From assembly GCA_951406725.2 (NCBI GenBank), contig OX597817.1:89714001-89778000 (forward strand): 64,000 nucleotides of DNA, in the 5' to 3' direction. The position numbers were made by a program, and so were the translations under genes. Shown here one piece after another: positions 5,800-54,114 of the stretch. The notes beneath the pieces are model-generated. The model was not told the origin of the DNA. It worked only from the letters and a program-made list of their open reading frames with translations, and did not search any database. How positions within the stretch are numbered: the stretch's first letter is position 1; each line of letters opens with the position of its first letter. Source of the stretch: Octopus vulgaris. Taxonomy: Eukaryota.

Positions 5800-8013
5800 G
5801 AATCCTTGTGGTTTTCGCCACTGTTTACAGTTATCTTTAAAAAGAATTTTAATGTATCACATAGATGTACTTTTTGACACTGAATCCGAATTTGTTATTC
5901 ATTTATTCCAGAAATAATTTGCAAAAATGTTACAGGTGTATTTTCAGAATTTTCAGCCAATCAGAAAACAGCGCCTTTGCTGCCGCTTCTATCATCAGGA
6001 AGAGGGGATTGGCATATCAAAACATTGCTAGAAATAACAGTCAAAACATTAAAATATACATGAATGAAGTTGTAGCAATATCGTCTCTCATTGCTATCTT
6101 CACTGTTTGAGAAGAGTATTAAGAATGACCTCGGTCGAGATTACAAACAGCTTTGGCTAGTTCAACATTGTTGTAAACACTAATTCGATTGGTTGACACG
6201 TTGGTCTCTACTACGCTCGCACCGCTGGTTATAACTTGGCGCAATTTGTCCCCGTTATTTTCGCGCCATAGTTCCAAGCAGCCAATCACAGCTTTCCATT
6301 TCTGAAGTTCACTGGGAGCCTGATGAAGCTTATAAAACAAGGTTTTTCAGAAAAATATTCGTCTTAGGTTTTCAGTCCTTCTCAGGGCGAACCTCTGACC
6401 ACAGAGCTCGTCTTAGGCTTTTAGTTCTTTTAAGAGCTAAGTCTCTGACCACACAGAGCATACTCGACCAAGTTCCAGTTCGAAGGCAGGCGACCACCAG
6501 TAATACAAGATGTTACAGATACCTCTTATAATGTTAGTGTGAAAAATCACCATGAAGAACGGTTACAAGATATCTATAACTAGAGAAAAATAACCAAGCA
6601 GAAAATAATGAAGAAGCAGCAAGAACCAATCGACAAACATCGAAGATTTAATTTGTACACGAGACAACTACAGATTCAACTATAGCGGTTAGGTGAAATT
6701 CTCGCCACGGAAAAAACGGCTACAGTAACATGTCTGGAAGTATATTCATATCAAGAGAAAGATAAACACAACGAGTGATTCAATTAATCTCAACTGCGAC
6801 ATGCAATATCCTGATATGGAACTCTTACAGTGTACCTCATAAACGGTAAATCAATTATCTGTTCTTGGGTTCTAGTTTCTTCTAAGAACTACCTTAAGCC
6901 ATCTGTTATTACCTGTTGCCAGGCCGATACCAACAATACGAACTCTGAGAATCCCATCGTCATTTCACTGGTCAGTACCTTTTTACACCTAACGAACACA
7001 CAGACACAAAAACATGCTAACGCTTACGAACTCTTAGAATCCACATGATTGTAAAATATGTAAAATAAATAATGTATATATCTTAAAAAGAAATCTTGTT
7101 GTCATTCCAAACTTATGTGTATTGCCGCTGCATGTATTATATAGTCAGTAAATAATTTATTAAGAATGGGATCGCGTGCGACTGTCACTTATACGGTACG
7201 ACCAAGCGTGATCCTATTTTTATAAAGTTAACATTAAAACATCCGCGAACAAATTAAATATTTAAAAGCTACAAACAAACAAATCACCAGAAGTTGCTAG
7301 AAATAACAGTCAAAACATTGTTTAAAACAAACATTTATTAGTTTTAAAAAATTCAAGAACGAATGTTTGCAATACACTCTAGTATTTTATGAAATAAACT
7401 AGCTGGCCCCGTACCGTAGAAAATGACGGCTAATCGTAGTATTTTAGAGATGAAACGCTGTTTGATTTTTCTTTTCAGCGCTGAATATTCACCATCCCAC
7501 TTCCATTGCACACACGCACACGCACACATACACACATACATAGACCGCACACGCACACAAATATTCACATACCTACCCTTTTACATACAAACACATATAC
7601 TCACACAGAGTTGAAGCGCTCCCTCTACCAGTTTGCCGTAACCCTTTTCTTCCTTATTCATCTATCACTCCTTCCTTTCCCATTCGTATGCTGTGACGAA
7701 GAAAAACACAAGAATATTATTATAGTAGAAGACTATCTTTCTCGTATCTCTTTCTCCTCCTTGTGCGCCTGCGTAGCATCTTTGGTTACTACAGAAACAC
7801 AGTTTTTTGGCACGTTGATGTGTAAAATACGTGCTTCTGATTGGCTAAGATACCGAAATTTTGCAAATCTTAAAGGCTAATGACTTTTTGATTATGGATT
7901 TATAGGGAAAATTAATTTCATTTTCATAATTAGTATACAAAACTTAATCCATATACCAAAATTGAAAACAATTACAACAAAACTGTAAACAGTGACGAAA
8001 ACCGAAAAGATCC
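5800..8013. mobile_element. Non-autonomous DNA transposon, Merlin-like (G(G/A)...CC termini, 8-bp TSD)
   Basis: TIRs gaatccttgtggttttcgccactgttta and taaacagtgacgaaaaccgaaaagatcc. Exact 8-bp TSD aagaaaga at 5792-5799 and 8014-8021. Confidence 0.7.
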
Positions 8014-42316: not shown

Positions 42317-42997
42317 CACGTACACTCACTCACACACATGTTTTCTCATTCAGTCACGCACCTTCTTCCTACCAGTCAATTACCACTTTGCTACTTTTAA
42401 CCTGCCACCAACTCTTTAACTCGCCAACGATACACACACACACTTCATATTCTTTTCAACTTCTTACTTCCATTTGACTTCCTTCTCCTTCCTAACGGGA
42501 TGTTCCTCCTCTTCTTTTTCCTTCCCTCCGCAAATCTACCATATTTTGCCATGCTACAAGTTCCCACTTAACGCTCTTCAGCTGTTTTTCCCTTGCAATA
42601 TTTGCCTCTAGAATTTTTCATTTTTACCATCTTTGGATTCCTAGGCTCCATCGAATGGTGTAAAAATGTTTTTAAAACACTTTTTTCTTTCTTCTGTTAT
42701 GAACTATCTAAAAACTTCCACAATCGTTAACACCTCATTTGCTTACTTTTCGCTTATAATTCCTACCTTCTAGAACTTTGCACCATTTATGTAATCTCCA
42801 CAGACTTTTCACCATTGTTATATGTATATTTTTTTACATCAATGATTTATTGTATATTATTTTTCACGGATTTCTCTTGTTTTTCACTCCTCCCTGAACA
42901 CGTCTTTCTTTCCGCTTCTTCTTCTTACCGGATTACTTCATCGTTTTTCTTTCTTTTACGCTTAAAAAATATTTTTCCTCCTTTTCTTTCCTTCCTC

Positions 42998-44135
42998 TCG
43001 AATTGTTTCCAAAGGAATTTTTATCCATTCTTCAGCTAAAACAGTCTTCAGCTCTTGTTGTGATGATGGCGGAGGATATCGAATCCTTACTTGTTTTTCT
43101 AAAATGCACCATAAATGTTCAATATCATCGATATCTGGGGACTTTGGTGGCCAGATAAGATGTTCAACTACACTAGAATGTTTCTCGTACAATTCACTAA
43201 CAACTTTAGCTGTGTGAATTGGTGCATTATTATCCTGAAAGATTGCGTTTCCCTTCGGAAACAGTTCCGCAACCATAGGATGAATTTGCTCAGATAAAAT
43301 GCTTAAATAGTCTTGACTATTAATTCTGCCATGAAGGGAAACCCTTGGGTCGGTGGATTTCCAAGATATACCCCCCCCCCCCCCGATCATCACAGATCCT
43401 CCTCCATTTTTAACAGTTGAAAGAAGGCAGTCTGGGTCAAATGCTTCTTTTGGCTACTCCACACGTATTGTCGGCCGGTTGTGGGAAATACGGTAAAGGG
43501 TGACTCGGCCGAGAAAATAACATTCTTCCACTACTCTAGGGACCGATTCAATAGGTTTTTACTCCACTCTAAACGCTTTGCAACGTTTATTTTTGAAAGT
43601 AGTGGTTTTCTGACTGCAGCCCTCCCGTGAAATCCGACTTTGTGCAGCTCCCGGCGAACAGGTTTTGTGGAAACTGGGTTCTTGAGGTGGTCATTAAGCT
43701 CTACAGTAATTCCAGAAGCTGTACTTTTGAGATGCTTTTAACAATTCGCGTAAGAGTCTGAAAGTTTTGGTTTTATACCGGAGTTTTGTTTCGACGAGGA
43801 GGGTTTTTCCTCTTTCTCGAAGACTCTCCATACTTTCGAGACAGTACATCTTGATACACCAAACATTTCGGCTGTTTTCGCTACGCTAGCGCCTGCCATA
43901 CGAGCACCAACAATTTGACCGCTTTGAAAGTCCAATAGATCAATCATTTTAATGAATTTTGATTACCGTTTTCTGATGATATCTGAAAAGAAACAGCAAT
44001 TTTAGCAAAACATATTAAGCAACACAAATAATAAATCAAAAACATAAAAATAAACAAGCTTTTGATGGTTTTATAGACAATTCAAAATTATTATGCTATG
44101 ATGCTAGGTGTTTCCATTATTTTGTCCAGCCCCTG
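42998..44135 (-). mobile_element. 3'-truncated Tc1 (DD34E) transposon
   Basis: ORFs 43738-43947 (GQIVGARMAGASV...GVSRCTVSKV) and 42962-43393 (FQDNNAPIH...WPPKSPDIDDIEHLW). TIR rc TA|caggggctggacaaaataatggaaacac. Confidence 0.9.
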
Positions 44136-45005: not shown

Positions 45006-45204
45006 AGGCTGTGTGGTAAGAAGCTTGGGGTTCGGCAAAAGTAACCGATAGAATAAGTACTAGGCTTACCAAGAATAAGTCCTGGGGTCGATTTGTTCGA
45101 CTAAAAGCAGTGCTCCAGCAGGCCTCAGTCAAATGACTGAAACAAGTAAAAGAATAAAAGAACATACGTACACACACACACACACACATAAATATATATA
45201 TCGC

Positions 45205-45432
45205 TAGATTGTCGGTTCGATTCCTTGACCGGGCGGCGTGTTGTGTTTTTGAGCAAAAGCCTTCATTTGACGTTGCTCAAGGCCCCCTTTCGATCGGGGA
45301 CGGGGGGATGTTATCCTGCTCGCCTAGCCAGCAGTGTGGTGTCATTTGAAGAGGAGAATAAAGCAAAAGCGCATTGTGACCAGCGATGTGTAACAACATC
45401 TGATAGACTGGTCAGTCACGTGATCACGTGAT
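45205..45432 (+). mobile_element. tRNA-derived SINE (third family) ending cacgtgatcacgtgata
   Basis: B-box ggttcgattcc. The 3' end is shared with 53495-53826. Confidence 0.7.
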
Positions 45433-45510
45433 ATGTATATATATATATGTGTGTGTGTGTGTGTGCGCGTGCGTATGTATGTGTGCATGTATGTATGTGC
45501 ACATATACCC

Positions 45511-45946
45511 AGGCGCAGGAGTGGTTGTGAGGTAAGTAGCTTGCTTAGCATCCACATACTTCCGAGTTAAGTCCCACTGCGTGACACCTTGGGCAACTGT
45601 CTTCTACTATAGCTTTGGGCCGACCAAAGCCCTTGTAAATGTATTTTGTGGACGGAAACTGAAAGAAGCCCATCGTTTATATATGTGTGTGTCTGTGTGT
45701 GTGTGTGTGTATGTATTTGTTTCTGTGCGTGTGTGTGTGTGTTTGTGTACGTGTGTGTCTGTTTGTCCCCCACCATCGCTTGACAACCGATTCTGGTGTG
45801 TTTACGCCCTGTAACTCAGCGGTTCGGCAAAAGAGACAGATAGAATAAGTACCAAGATTACAAAGAATAAGTCCGGGGTCGATCAGTTCCACTAAATGCG
45901 GTGCTCCAGTATGGCCGCAGTCGAATAACTGAAACAAGTAAAAGAA
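45511..45946 (+). mobile_element. Full-length CORE-type SINE
   Basis: tRNA-like head, core gacaccttgggcaactgtcttct, internal (TG)n, tail ctgaaacaagtaaaag. Confidence 0.85.
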
Positions 45947-46399
45947 TTCATACATGCATACATGCAAGCATACATACATAGAATAGAATTTAGGTAGACG
46001 CAAAGAAAGAAACAATACACATCAGACACAAGAGTCAAATGTCGACCGGAAAGAGAGAAAAAAAATGAATGAAAAGTTATAATCAAAATGATAGACGCAT
46101 GAAGAAATAGAGCGTAACACTTGTGCGTTTACTAATTAGCTAATTTATAATTACTTCTTATGTATGTATGTATGTTTGTTTATACTTACACACACACATC
46201 CACATACACGCACACATATATGTATGTGCGCGTGTATATGCATATTTACACCCACACACCCACGCCCCATATATATACGTATGAATATATATACATATGA
46301 AGGAATATATATATATACACACATATTTATGTACGTATGTATATATACATAGATAATACATACACACACACACACACATATGTATGTATGTATGTATAC

Positions 46400-46437
<38 letters not shown>

Positions 46438-46734
46438 TCTTAGGGAATAATTAAGTATTCCAGGTTGTCAGGACATTTAGTATTTTACACTTTACTAATG
46501 CAATGTAAACAGTATCATTTATAATATTACAAATTTGGGATTTTACCAATAGAACCGCAATTCCTCTTTCAGGATATCCTTATTGTATGGAATACACATA
46601 GAAAATTGTATCCAATAAAATAATATAAGCATTTAAAAAAACCTACCATAAAATACAATAAAATTATTTAAAAAAATATTTGAAAAATATATATTACTTA
46701 GCTATTATTAGTCAGTGGGGAAAGAAAATATTTT

Positions 46735-46826
46735 TAATCAACGCTACACATGTTTCTGCGCTGGTGGTGTGTTTATCAAGGCTATACCTAATGCATAAAT
46801 CCACCAGTGCGTCCTCAGGTTATTTA
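46735..46826 (-). ncRNA. Minimal type-I hammerhead ribozyme in the PLE terminal repeat
   Basis: Minus strand reads aataac-CTGAGGA-c-gcactggtgg...ccaccagcgc-a-GAAA-catgtg-TA-gcgttgatt. Stem II pairs 9/10 bp. Stem I is imperfect. Confidence 0.65.
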
Positions 46827-47699
46827 TCTTATAGTTATTATTATTAACGGATCAAAATTAAAAATACATATTATAAGTCATATTAAATAGAATTAAGAAT
46901 ATGAATAAAAATATAATAAAAATATATAAATTTCAAATATATTTTTAAAAATTAAAAAAAGTTTAAACGTAGAAAATTTTAAAAAATTAAACACCTAAAA
47001 TTACAATACCGATATATAGAGAGAATGCTAAACCTAAGGAAACCCTCAACGATTATATTATAAACGCATCAAATCCTACAACCTATCTATATAAAAGTTA
47101 CGGGAATCAATAATTTAGTGTAAGAATTACCCCTATCTATACAAGTATAAATTACTATTTTTTATGTCAAACGTAAGTTAATAGTATTTAAAAAGATTAT
47201 TTAGTAAAAACCACTATATACGTTATAAATGTATTGGATAAAACTTGTAAAAAATCTAGTAAAAAAATTAACAAAGGAAGAATACTTATCGACATAATGT
47301 TTACTCCTTTCCTTTCCTGTGTAAATGGCTTCTCCCTCTGTCATGCGCTAAGTATTATGGGAATAACACAAATAAAATAAAATACTCTAAGACTAATAAT
47401 ATTAGAGAAGTTGAATTCAAGGGGAGATAATAACTAGAAATATGTTATACTCTTAAATCTAGCTGTAACTGGATTTTTTATAGTGTTTAAGATTTAGAGA
47501 TTTATGTTAGATTAAATGTGGCCTTTTAAGGTAATATTCTTTAATAAATGCATGGTTCCTGGTATATGAATATCTAATGCTACTATAAAATTTTATTATA
47601 ACTACATTTAACTATCTACCTCATAACTGTTCAAGAGATTACATACTGGGGTGGGGGGGTTAATTTTATATATTTTTCATTTTATTATACGTAAAGTTA

Positions 47700-47990
47700 T
47701 TCTTATGTCAGCATTCTATTCCTCTCTCTTCAATACTGTTCAGTAATACCTCTCTTAACTGGAGTATTTTCATAAACTCTGTTGTGCATAATAAGCACAT
47801 TTTATTACCTATTCTATATGATTTCGCTCTACAAATGATATTCCAATTAAGGGTATATTCTATTTTATTAAATTTCAACTCCCATGTGTATTTACTTAGA
47901 CCTGTCGAATTTATTAATTTGGGATTTTTGAAGGACTGATAATGGTTGGAAAATTCTTCTTTTAATTTCGTTCGCTGTGGATCCTATATA
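47700..47990 (-). pseudogene. Penelope-like (Naiad-type) GIY-YIG endonuclease C-terminal half
   Basis: YIGSTANEIKRRI/NHYQSFKNPKLINSTGLSKYTWELKFNKIEYTLNWNIICRAKSYRIGNKMCLLCTTEFMKIL...LLNSIEERGIEC*H, with one frameshift and one stop. Confidence 0.85.
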
Positions 47991-48197
47991 GCGTTAATTA
48001 AAATATCTTCTTTCCCCACAGACTAATAATAGGTAAGTTATAAATATTTTTCAAATAATTTTATTGTATTTTATAGTAGGTTTTTTAAATGCTTATATTA
48101 TTTTATTGGATATAACTTTCTATGTGTATTCCATACCATAAGGATATCCTGAAATAGAAGTTGCGGTTCTATTGGTAAAATAAATTTGTAATAATAC

Positions 48198-48248
<51 letters not shown>

Positions 48249-49235
48249 TGTGTGTGTGTGTACATACGTGCAGATACCTGTGTATATGTTTAAGTGCTGT
48301 TTAAATATATGTATCCATGTATACGCGAACGCCCATACCAACATGTGTGTGTATGTGGTGTTCGTACGTGTGTGCGTGCCTGCGTGTGTGTGTGTGTGTT
48401 CTTTACAATAAACAAGCGAAAGAAATGCTCAATACATAGTGCAACATATATAGTAGGGGCTTGGTGAAATAAATAGAACAAAGGCCTCGTTACCCTATAA
48501 TATCTGTCTCAGCTCGTTGTATTCGTGTTGTTACGCTTGCGATAATACAGTGGTGCCAAACTGTATCGGTCATTACTTTCTGTGTGGACCAAAATATCGG
48601 TGGTTTGCAGTAGCAAGTTTAAAATATCTGCAACAGCTGGCTGTGTGTGAAAGAGTCTGCTTCTCATGTTGAGTCCTACTGCGTGTCACCTTGGACAAGT
48701 GTCTTCCACTACAGCAGTGGTTCTCATCAAAGGTCCATATCACCTTCGGGAGTCCATATAAGATTTTGTTATTAAAATTTATATGCAATAAAACTGTGTG
48801 CAATACACAAAGTATTTTAACAAGTTTAGCAATGTTTTTTGATAATATTTGATTATAAAAATACAATAGGATTCTTTTTTAAATATCGAATGGCTATGAT
48901 GGTCCACCCAAGTAAAAAGTAATAATAGGAATGAAAGGGTTCCATAGACAGAAAAATGGCGTGTGAGTGGATTCGGTAGAAGCCCGTCGTGTGTCAAGCC
49001 GCGTGTTTGTCTTCGTCTGTCTTGGCCTTCAGCACCACCATCACGGATAGACAACTGGTGTTGATGTGTTTATGTCCCCGTAAATTTAGCGGTTCTACGA
49101 AAGGGACCAACAGAATAAATATCAGACTTTCAAAAAATAAGTAGTTGTGGATTTGTTCGACTAAACTTCTACAAGGAGGTGCCCCAGCATGGCCGCAGTC
49201 TAATGAATGAAATACATCAATGTTAAAGACCTGCG

Positions 49236-51994: not shown

Positions 51995-52395
51995 AGGCTC
52001 AGGCGTGGCTGTATGGTAAGGAGCTTGCTTCGTAATCGTGTGGTTCTGTGTTCAGTCCCATTGCGTGGCACCTTGGGCTAGTGTCTCCTACAATAGTCTC
52101 GGGCCGACCAAATCCTTGTGAATGGATTTGGTAGACGGAAACTGAAAGAAGCCCGTCGTATGTATAGGTGCGTGGGGTGTATCTTTGAGTCTCTGTTTGT
52201 CCTACCACCACCGCTTAAGAGCGGGTGTTGGTGTATTTATGACCCTGTACCTTAGCAGTTCGGCAAAAGAGATGGATAAAATAAGCACCAGGCTTTAAAA
52301 AAATAGGTACTGGGGTCGATTTATTTGACTGAATATTCTTCAAAGCGGAGCCCCAGCATGGCTGCAGTCTAATGACTGAAACAAGTAAAAGACAA
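51995..52395 (+). mobile_element. Full-length CORE-type SINE
   Basis: Same head, core and tail as 45511-45946. Confidence 0.85.
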
Positions 52396-53028
52396 AGGAT
52401 TAAAAAAACCGTTATAAAGATTCGTCCGAGAGAAACTGGAATCAAAAGGGGTCCATAGAAAAAAATGGTTAATAACCACTAGGTAAAGGGATGAAGATGA
52501 TGGTGAGTGTTGATGGTTGTGTACCGGGTGTTAATGATATTAGAAGGATAGTAGGGATAGATGCTCGCCCTGATGGTGTGTGTACGAAGTCATGGGGGTG
52601 CGTTTAATATCGCGGCATGTACGTTGGTTGTTTGTGCTGCTGGCTGTGTGGGTGGTGATAACGAATATGAGAACAAACGAACATGTTGACACTGGTGGGA
52701 AACAGAGTGGCAAACGAGACGAGGAGGGTTTGAATCGGCAGTAGTTCTAGCAAAATGGTTGTGGTGGTGGTGGTTGTGGTGGTTTGGTGGCAAGGATGCC
52801 AGTGTTAGCTAAGACGGTGGTAGATGTGTTCGTTTGTAGCGGGCGGGACGAGGCAATAAAACAAACAAGTGATACATGAGTTCATAAATACACAATCAAA
52901 ACGCAGCACGGTTGCCTGACATTAATAATAAAATAAGAGTGTCATACATACATACATACATGTACGTGCATTACACATGCGCACACACGTTCGCACTCAC
53001 ATATAGACACACACGTAATTACATACAT

Positions 53029-53495: not shown

Positions 53496-53826
53496 GCGCA
53501 ATTGCCCAGTGGTTAGGGCAGCGGTTTTGATTCCCAGACCGGGCGTTGTGAGTGTTTATTGAGCGAAAACACCTAAAGCTCCACTAGGCTCCGGCAGGGG
53601 GGGGGCGATCCCTGCTGTACTCTTTCTCCACAAAATAAAGAAATTTGAAAAAAATAAAGAAATTTGTACTCTTTCTCCACAACTTTCTCTCACTCTTTCT
53701 TCTGTTGGCCTGCTCACTTAGCCAGCGGGGTGGCGTCATTTGAAGGCTAAAACAAGGCGAAGCGCATTGTGACCAGCGACGTGTAGCAACATCAGATAGC
53801 CTGGTCGGTCACGTGATCACGTGATA
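53495..53826 (+). mobile_element. tRNA-derived SINE (third family)
   Basis: A-box-like ttgcccagtggttagggca. 3' end ggtcggtcacgtgatcacgtgata. Confidence 0.7.
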
Positions 53827-53832
53827 TATATA

Positions 53833-54003
53833 TAGGTGCAGGCGTGGCTGTGTGGTAAGAAGCTTGCTTCCCAACCACATAGTTCCGGGTTCAGTCCCAC
53901 TGCATGGCACCTATGCAACTATGGCACTTTCTCCTATAGCCTCGGGCCGACCAAAGTCTTGTGAGTGGATTTGGTAGAGGGAAACTGAAAGAAGCCCGTC
54001 GTA
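53833..54003 (+). mobile_element. CORE-type SINE 5' half
   Basis: aggtgcaggcgtggctgtgtggtaag...gggttcagtccc...gaaagaagcccgtcg. Confidence 0.8.
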
Positions 54004-54114
54004 TATATATAATTATATATATACGACCATTTTTTTCACAGCAGCCGCTGACCGGTTGTGCTCATCCACCTCCCACAATAAGGAGCAGTCGCCATATTCC
54101 CTTTCATGTCGGCT

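Follow-up and report, generated by a model that had tools for sequence, protein, structure and literature searches.

Insertions of Hydra-clade Penelope-like elements (PLEs) in the genome of Octopus vulgaris begin at the predicted cut of their hammerhead ribozyme more often than random truncation gives, and we read this excess as the probable trace of a minority of templates that were cleaved by their own ribozyme in vivo and from whose end copying ran off. Copies that start at the cut make up 10 of 115 in families A and B, about 11 of 155 in the young family C1 and 4 of 46 in a sample of the C families, or roughly 7–9%, and about 90% of the copies reaching the site read through an intact ribozyme. 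The per-base excess of starts, together with template jumps at the cut, provides moderately strong, though indirect, evidence of cleavage in vivo and of cleaved RNA as a substrate. Positions relative to the cut are numbered from +1, the first base after GUA, and the window denotes the whole 64,000-nt stretch of contig OX597817.1 that was analysed.

The insertion with which we are concerned occupies positions 46434–48195 of the window and is a 5′-truncated Hydra-clade element with a head-to-head inverted arm. An identical ACG(TA)n string flanks both ends on the plus strand (46398–46433 and 48196–48239); the two copies differ in length (36 versus 44 nt), as microsatellite slippage would give, and look like a slipped target-site duplication within a (TA)n microsatellite. 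On the minus strand, the segment of the 3′ pLTR that follows the predicted cut (46434–46744, +1 to about +312) ends at the distal of two preferred 3′ ends and adjoins a type I hammerhead motif (46722–46835, outer limits approximate), an AT-rich 3′ untranslated region (approximately 46836–47670), which has no open reading frame and recurs at 81–88% in other genomic copies, and the frameshifted, 5′-truncated C-terminal half of a GIY-YIG endonuclease of Hydra type (47671–47990; YIGST…LSKYTWEL…CLLCTTE…N…C). The inverted pLTR arm, on the plus strand (47991–48195), extends from +1 to about +225 of the family numbering, where the proximal of the preferred 3′ ends lies, and one arm of the insertion stops at each of the two preferred ends, which in family A lie at +220–229 in 52 of 110 copies and at +310–319 in 33 of 110. 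Aligned to the other arm (47989–48196, plus, against 46746–46522, minus), the inverted arm gives 194 matches, 14 mismatches and 4 gaps, the alignment beginning TA|GCG. Two rare derived alleles are common to both arms; of 70 other copies, 5 have the one, 3 the other and none the pair, and the arms are therefore likely to stem from one source element and one old event. Head-to-head inverted 5′-truncated copies and the tail are PLE features already described (PMC8557442, PMC3846280), and neither the element type nor its layout is out of the ordinary.

Two other origins for this layout were considered and rejected. A new element landing at the cut site of an older pLTR does not fit, since the upstream half of the ribozyme is absent from the far side in the window; for the ten cut-site copies of families A and B, no upstream continuation was found within 1.3 kb, bar a spurious (TA)n match in L077. 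A non-LTR retrozyme, a head-to-tail tandem array of short non-coding units that each hold one hammerhead, is at odds with the endonuclease ORF remnant and the inverted arm of the window copy, and no tandem copy of the element was found elsewhere within the window.

The Hydra clade of endonuclease-bearing PLEs was described by Craig et al. 2021, with Hydra-1_Obim among its elements, and the octopus elements resemble it in the C-terminal GIY-YIG domain without CCHH, the CxCX5C linker, the CxxC and CxH around E and N, the (TA)n target, the hammerhead in the 3′ pLTR, the inverted 5′-truncated copy at the 5′ end and the tail with two 3′ ends (PMC8557442). From the agreement of motifs, judged by eye against the supplementary alignment of that paper, the window element appears to be an ordinary Hydra-type insertion. 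A near-complete young element of this type, L282 (G000:C10:100765500-100774500), has two direct pLTRs 2,979 nt apart plus an inverted arm, and a 695-aa open frame with an Asn-rich stretch between the reverse transcriptase and the linker and one frameshift upstream. Its ORF carries the C-terminal GIY-YIG domain (VVYKCIV…IYIGST) with no CCHH between; the window copy lacks the GIY half, and its remnant is 52% identical to the end of the L282 endonuclease. The CxCX5C linker between reverse transcriptase and endonuclease reads CTCRDKSKC in L282 and L283 and belongs to a region absent from the window copy, and the CxxC/CxH residues around the conserved E and N read CYLCSNE…N…CRH in L282, the window motif being interrupted by a frameshift after its …N…C. 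As to two further marks of the clade, DKT in place of DKG and an RWK motif close to the N-terminus, SDKT is read by eye in the inverted ORF of L351 and SDTT in L284, and the RWK position has RIKWKA here versus RMRWKA in Hydra-1_Obim. Most sister copies end in (TA)n, the target seen on both flanks in the window. Pfam returned no match for the window endonuclease remnant or for the L282 ORF, and the endonuclease query yielded 13,660 first-look candidates in the genome.

The window ribozyme lies on the minus strand, CTGAGGA at 46818–46812 … GAAACATGTGTA^GCGTTGATT, with the cut predicted at 46745/46744. It consists of a long stem II, GAAA, a palindromic stem III (ACACGTGT in the family, ACATGTGT here), the GUA^ cut and a short stem I, and this copy is decayed, having lost pair 2 of stem I and one pair of stem III. 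Rfam gave no hammerhead match at E up to 10 within 46500–47100, and the motif was identified from its core words and family covariation; published PLE hammerhead motifs were found with custom descriptors (PMC4209133). Across the families the core elements CUGANGA, GAAA and UH occur in order with stems I, II and III, the cores being invariant and the stems being kept despite changes in sequence. Among 178 core-fitting motifs from the fetched loci, stem III is a perfect 8-nt palindrome in 134, a count to be read with the fact that the search itself forced the outer letters of this stem; ACGATCGT, ACACGTGT and ACAATTGT are the commonest forms. Stem I pair 1 is kept in 175 of the 178 and pair 2 in 167, by several pair types. 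Such conservation of pairing argues that the ribozyme is under structural selection. Beside the core, stem I has only 2–4 bp, and in family A stem II is worth −18.6 versus −10.3 kcal/mol for the stem III dimer. In its type I core, short helix I and palindromic helix III suited to dimers, the motif is like the minimal PLE hammerheads of Cervera and de la Pena 2014 and, in having an intron acceptor directly 5′ of helix I, like Penelope of D. virilis (PMC4209133). The single Hydra-1_Obim motif row that was compared (PMC8557442), on the other hand, differs from the ribozymes here, in which stem III is a long palindrome and stem II has a mismatch or a weak pair at its base.

The genome searched comprises 2.8 Gb in 227 contigs. 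Copies of families A and B were gathered by anchors 133–164 nt downstream of the cut, from the best 100 of 160 matches to one anchor and all 91 to the second, and 177 of the 194 anchored copies were kept as unbiased. A first DNA search, which gave only the best full-length matches, was left out of the counts, and 16 copies from biased routes, the segmental duplicate L166 and 9 boundaries from later insertions or deletions were dropped or corrected beforehand. Ten of the 177 copies, the window arm included, begin at −2..+1: five at +1 exactly, three at −1 and two at −2. A null model of real intact copies truncated at random and joined to real flanks (1,500 trials) expects 1.08 such starts from all other boundaries in −70..+70, or 1.57 from the downstream boundaries alone, so that the excess has P values of 2e-7 and 6e-6, respectively, or 3e-5 and 9e-4 after a 140-fold correction. 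Ends per base amount to 4.0 at the cut, 2.0 at +2..+4, 0.6 at −9..−3 and 0–0.3 further upstream. A second sample of 52 copies, drawn with a +4..+34 pattern, contributed no new cut-site ends, five at −9..−3 and one at +2..+4. When the samples are pooled, the cut has 10 ends, the palindrome zone −9..−3, which is 2.6-fold wider, has 9 (cut versus palindrome, P=0.018), +2..+4 has 7 and −50..−10 has 7. The signal in families A and B is thus a hot zone with a peak and no clean edge, and part of this zone may be structural. Further pile-ups at +5..+17 and +40..+55 reflect in part an AT-rich smear and (TA)n flanks and were not counted as signal.

The excess recurs in family C1, whose copies are 94–99% alike and whose sequence around the cut differs from that of families A and B. 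A −2..+1 pattern gave 10 matches among about 155 copies with +1..+26 exact, and one more copy, L445, which that pattern missed, came from the +1..+26 matches (best 100 of 146). An equal-width control at +2..+4 gave 3 matches that represent two events, both at +4 on a GATATC palindrome; four events were found in a control at −12..−14 and at least three at −3..−9 (L446, L378, L447). Tested against these controls, the cut stands out with P 0.009 when three upstream events are counted and with about 0.016, calculated by hand, when L377 is taken as a fourth. An unbiased sample of 99 C copies, for which the first 100 matches were taken out of at least 1,920 that fit the anchor exactly, contains four starts at the cut (three at +1 exactly and one at −2), one further start that is ambiguous between +1 and +3, three ends at −4..−7 and three at −12..−14, one of the latter being a deletion; about ten copies of this sample were given calls at +58..+87 through comparison with a spurious reference, which leaves the cut region unaffected. 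The preliminary description had asked beforehand for such an alignment of genomic copies, and its expectation is borne out in so far as ends peak at the cut in two family groups instead of falling at random; the peak nevertheless has shoulders, at +2..+4 and on the stem III palindrome (−9..−3), and the second A/B sample brought no further cut-site event.

There are 24 distinct cut-site events in all. Eleven begin precisely at +1, the letter at −1 being other than A; the remaining 13, the window's included, have A or TA at −1/−2 and may have ended 1–2 nt upstream. The share with A at −1 is no more than the flanks give (P 0.16), and the mode of the cut-site events is therefore +1. By our own count, an extra G at −1 occurs in one of the 24.

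An RNA end is best told apart from a palindrome effect at the DNA level by what the cut-site copies are joined to. Reverse transcriptases of retroelements jump at template ends, and three of the ten A/B cut-site copies are joined to sense pieces derived from RNA, compared with none of 94 other truncated copies (Fisher P 7e-4). In L215, a GC-rich sense fragment of 18S rRNA is fused at the ribozyme cut (minus strand, upstream of the pLTR by about 330 nt). The 18S call rests on a 21-nt motif that in metagenome matches was 18S in 10 of 10 loci tested, of 80 fetched, plus a 65-nt, 77% match, and Rfam did not call the short piece; on this basis L215 appears to be an rRNA chimera made by the PLE. L097 and L227 are joined to sense pieces from the 5′ part of the element's own ORF, the query in this test being in part L227's own flank. 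In L038 and L077, both arms begin at +1 and overlap by GC.

Self-priming by snap-back is possible for symmetric pairs of arms. It was rejected for the window copy, in which the partner of the inverted arm holds 1.2 kb upstream of +1 and thus cannot be the short arm's copy, and for L186 and L097, in which the partner arm extends beyond the 3′ end of the arm that starts at +1. The two-arm anatomy favours a two-primer model over self-priming for the inverted layout. Two neighbouring sequences are of note in their own right: upstream of the pLTR in L077, three repeats of (TA)n plus TTAATCA come after the short inverted arm and resemble reiterated copying of a short template, and the upstream flank of L144 contains a near-perfect hairpin of about 300 nt beyond (TA)n.

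Applied to the window, the two-primer model would run as follows. Both target strands would have been nicked, and each would have primed cDNA synthesis at one or other of the pLTR's two internal start sites. The longer cDNA would have passed an uncleaved ribozyme and come to a stop within the endonuclease region, while the shorter one would have stopped at +1, the reverse transcriptase having presumably run off an RNA whose 5′ end had been cut by the hammerhead. Repair may then have joined the 3′ ends of the two cDNAs head to head, in what would be an old insertion into a (TA)n tract.

The junction itself agrees with what the preliminary description reported, namely an inverted arm of about 200 bp that begins at the predicted cut (TA|GCG, starting at 47989) and is joined through TA to the truncated GIY-YIG ORF at its YIG codons, the remnant reading TAT ATA GGA TCC (YIGS) and being frameshifted shortly afterwards. 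Its further proposal, that this junction records the copying of a self-cleaved RNA, draws support from the population and is blurred in the copy from which it arose. The dinucleotide at 47989–47990 provides the first two letters of the Tyr codon as well as U16.1-A17 of the ribozyme, so the joint may lie anywhere from −3|−2 to −1|+1, and this junction therefore cannot on its own be assigned to a cleaved template. If TA was used for annealing, the arm cDNA ran two bases beyond the cut, contrary to what a cleaved template would yield; if TA was supplied by the partner, the arm began at +1, and it is this reading, with TA shared by coincidence, that fits cleavage. We consider it fairly likely that this particular junction came from a cleaved template, with chance truncation a plausible, if less favoured, origin for the one copy.

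For the genome-wide pattern, the main rival to cleavage is structure: reverse transcriptase might stall at the 3′ side of the folded ribozyme or of a stem III dimer, and the self-complementary stem III might aid the annealing of arms. The nine pooled A/B ends at −9..−3 and the seven at +2..+4 are what such stalling would leave, as are the scarcity of ends further upstream and the C-family junctions whose midpoint is the stem III palindrome (L447, L442, L378), and palindromes at inverted junctions, with self-priming as the proposed cause, have been reported for PLEs (PMC3846280). However, the peak at +1 lies outside the palindrome, with 11 of the 24 events exactly there, C1 has no events at +2 or +3, and in family A the stem II zone (−17..−10) gathers only 3 ends although its helix is the stronger one. 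Furthermore, the joins to 18S rRNA and ORF RNA need no self-complementarity and are seen only at the cut. We therefore regard structure in place of cleavage as rather unlikely. Chance carries still less weight, and as an account of the population it is implausible and largely refuted: a truncation that happened to be joined by TA microhomology, within a genome-wide excess that has no single cause, would suit the TA shared with the partner, the 1–1.6 such ends that background predicts in the sample and the second A/B sample with none, but three samplings in two family groups all show the excess, and we rate this reading as very improbable.

Transcription start offers a different account of the same coordinate. 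A transcription initiator is a pyrimidine-purine step, which T(−2)A(−1) fits, and +1, or the A at −1, might thus be the start site of a pLTR promoter coinciding with the ribozyme site; PLE pLTRs are reported to carry internal promoters (PMC8557442, PMC3846280), and for families A and B no start site was located. Against this, the boundary tracks the GUA^ site across families whose flanking sequences differ, A at −1 is not above flank level in the cut-site events, and the additional G at −1 that a capped RNA might give is limited to the single case. The spliced C1 copies, in addition, have their 5′ limit behind an upstream exon, at about −88. In many C1 copies, …CATAGAAG is joined directly to GTCTTGAAACC, the spliced form, and in L286 (minus strand, exon at 7052) and L352 (plus strand, exon at 317) the exon ending in CATAGAAG is found behind a GT donor some 1.17 kb upstream. 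The intron is GT..AG and about 1.1 kb long, its acceptor lies 52 nt before the ribozyme cut, and TTTTAG closes it in unspliced copies. The 5′ ends of spliced copies (L453, L454, L355, L445, L363, L404) stack at about −60 to −88, directly behind TCATTC, which we take to be an initiator-like motif. C1 transcription therefore likely starts 60–90 nt upstream of the cut and not at +1, and a start site at the cut seems to us quite improbable. Most C1 templates are likely to have carried the ribozyme uncut, and the integration of spliced as well as unspliced retrocopies suggests that intron loss and retention co-occur in one PLE family. In families A and B, eight 5′ ends (L189, L134, L119, L195, L102, L139, L176, L190) fall at +40..+46, on or near a donor-like ACAG|GTAAG (+40..+48), and could derive from intron-derived templates or merely from the adjoining TA-rich stretch.

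Returning to cleavage, it is a minority fate, probably for want of the second ribozyme copy or the protein that the palindromic stem III would require. We also lean, less firmly, towards a wider scheme in which PLE hammerheads cut germ-line transcripts and leave about 7–9% of the templates cleaved, and reverse transcriptase, having run off these, either joins a second cDNA head to head or jumps end to end onto 18S rRNA or ORF RNA; one element would then have three classes of template side by side, namely capped spliced RNA, unspliced RNA and self-cleaved RNA.

PLE hammerhead activity is weak in vitro. L1 elements provide a familiar parallel, in that twin priming, with two primers on one target, gives head-to-head inversions, and template switches yield chimeric insertions of the U6-L1 type; the octopus elements resemble them in both respects and are unlike them in that preferred internal sites of the pLTR are where both arms start and templates are switched at the ribozyme cut. 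The closest precedent, as far as the available text of Eickbush et al. 2013 goes, is the HDV-like ribozyme of R2, whose self-cleavage sets the template's 5′ end and whose 5′ junctions are variable, with chance microhomology (PMC3774820). Cleavage in R2, however, frees the element from an rRNA co-transcript and marks the full-length 5′ junction, whereas here the ribozyme is a hammerhead, cleavage is a minority fate, and its traces are found in inverted arms and template jumps. With Poseidon of Anolis carolinensis (Frangieh et al. 2024, PMC11167929), the octopus elements share two internal start sites for reverse transcription that define the tail, the presumed nicking and extension of both target strands, an AT-rich target and uncleaved RNA as the main template, with which a read-through of roughly 90% agrees. 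As reported in the sections available to us, ribozyme mutants of the anole element insert normally in vitro, cleavage being dispensable there, and no RNA-seq reads began or ended at the cut, unlike the minority of genomic copies that start at the cut here (PMC11167929). In the portions of the earlier PLE literature at hand, a 2014 paper states that there is no in vivo evidence for the hammerheads (PMC4209133), and a 2021 paper calls their function unclear and does not relate 5′ boundaries to the cut site (PMC8557442). Within the literature searched, no report was found of PLE 5′ boundaries clustering at the hammerhead cut; the Terminon paper (PMC5850863) and Lunse et al. 2017, which lay outside the scope of that search, may discuss it. 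If cleavage is indeed what the boundaries record, counting what fraction of copies start at GUA^+1 would give a cheap assay of ribozyme activity, based on sequence only, for any PLE family in any genome.

A few further observations concern the families and the surroundings of the window element. Many young C copies (L302–L444) are short head-to-head pairs; these families comprise at least six subfamilies with differing stem II sequences on one core, and several subfamilies have their own recurrent 5′ limit 52–93 nt upstream of the cut. L285 (minus strand, 5680) and L289 (plus strand, 7199) contain further hammerhead-like motifs, which belong to other families and differ in the sequences of stems I and III. 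Around the window element there are dispersed SINE-like repeats (45030–45950, 48955–49230, 51995–52400 and 53700–54010), and similar repeats interrupt sister PLE copies at their TA-rich stretch. Finally, a 163-aa frame on the minus strand at 42962–43453 reads like the catalytic part of what we take to be a Tc1-type transposase.
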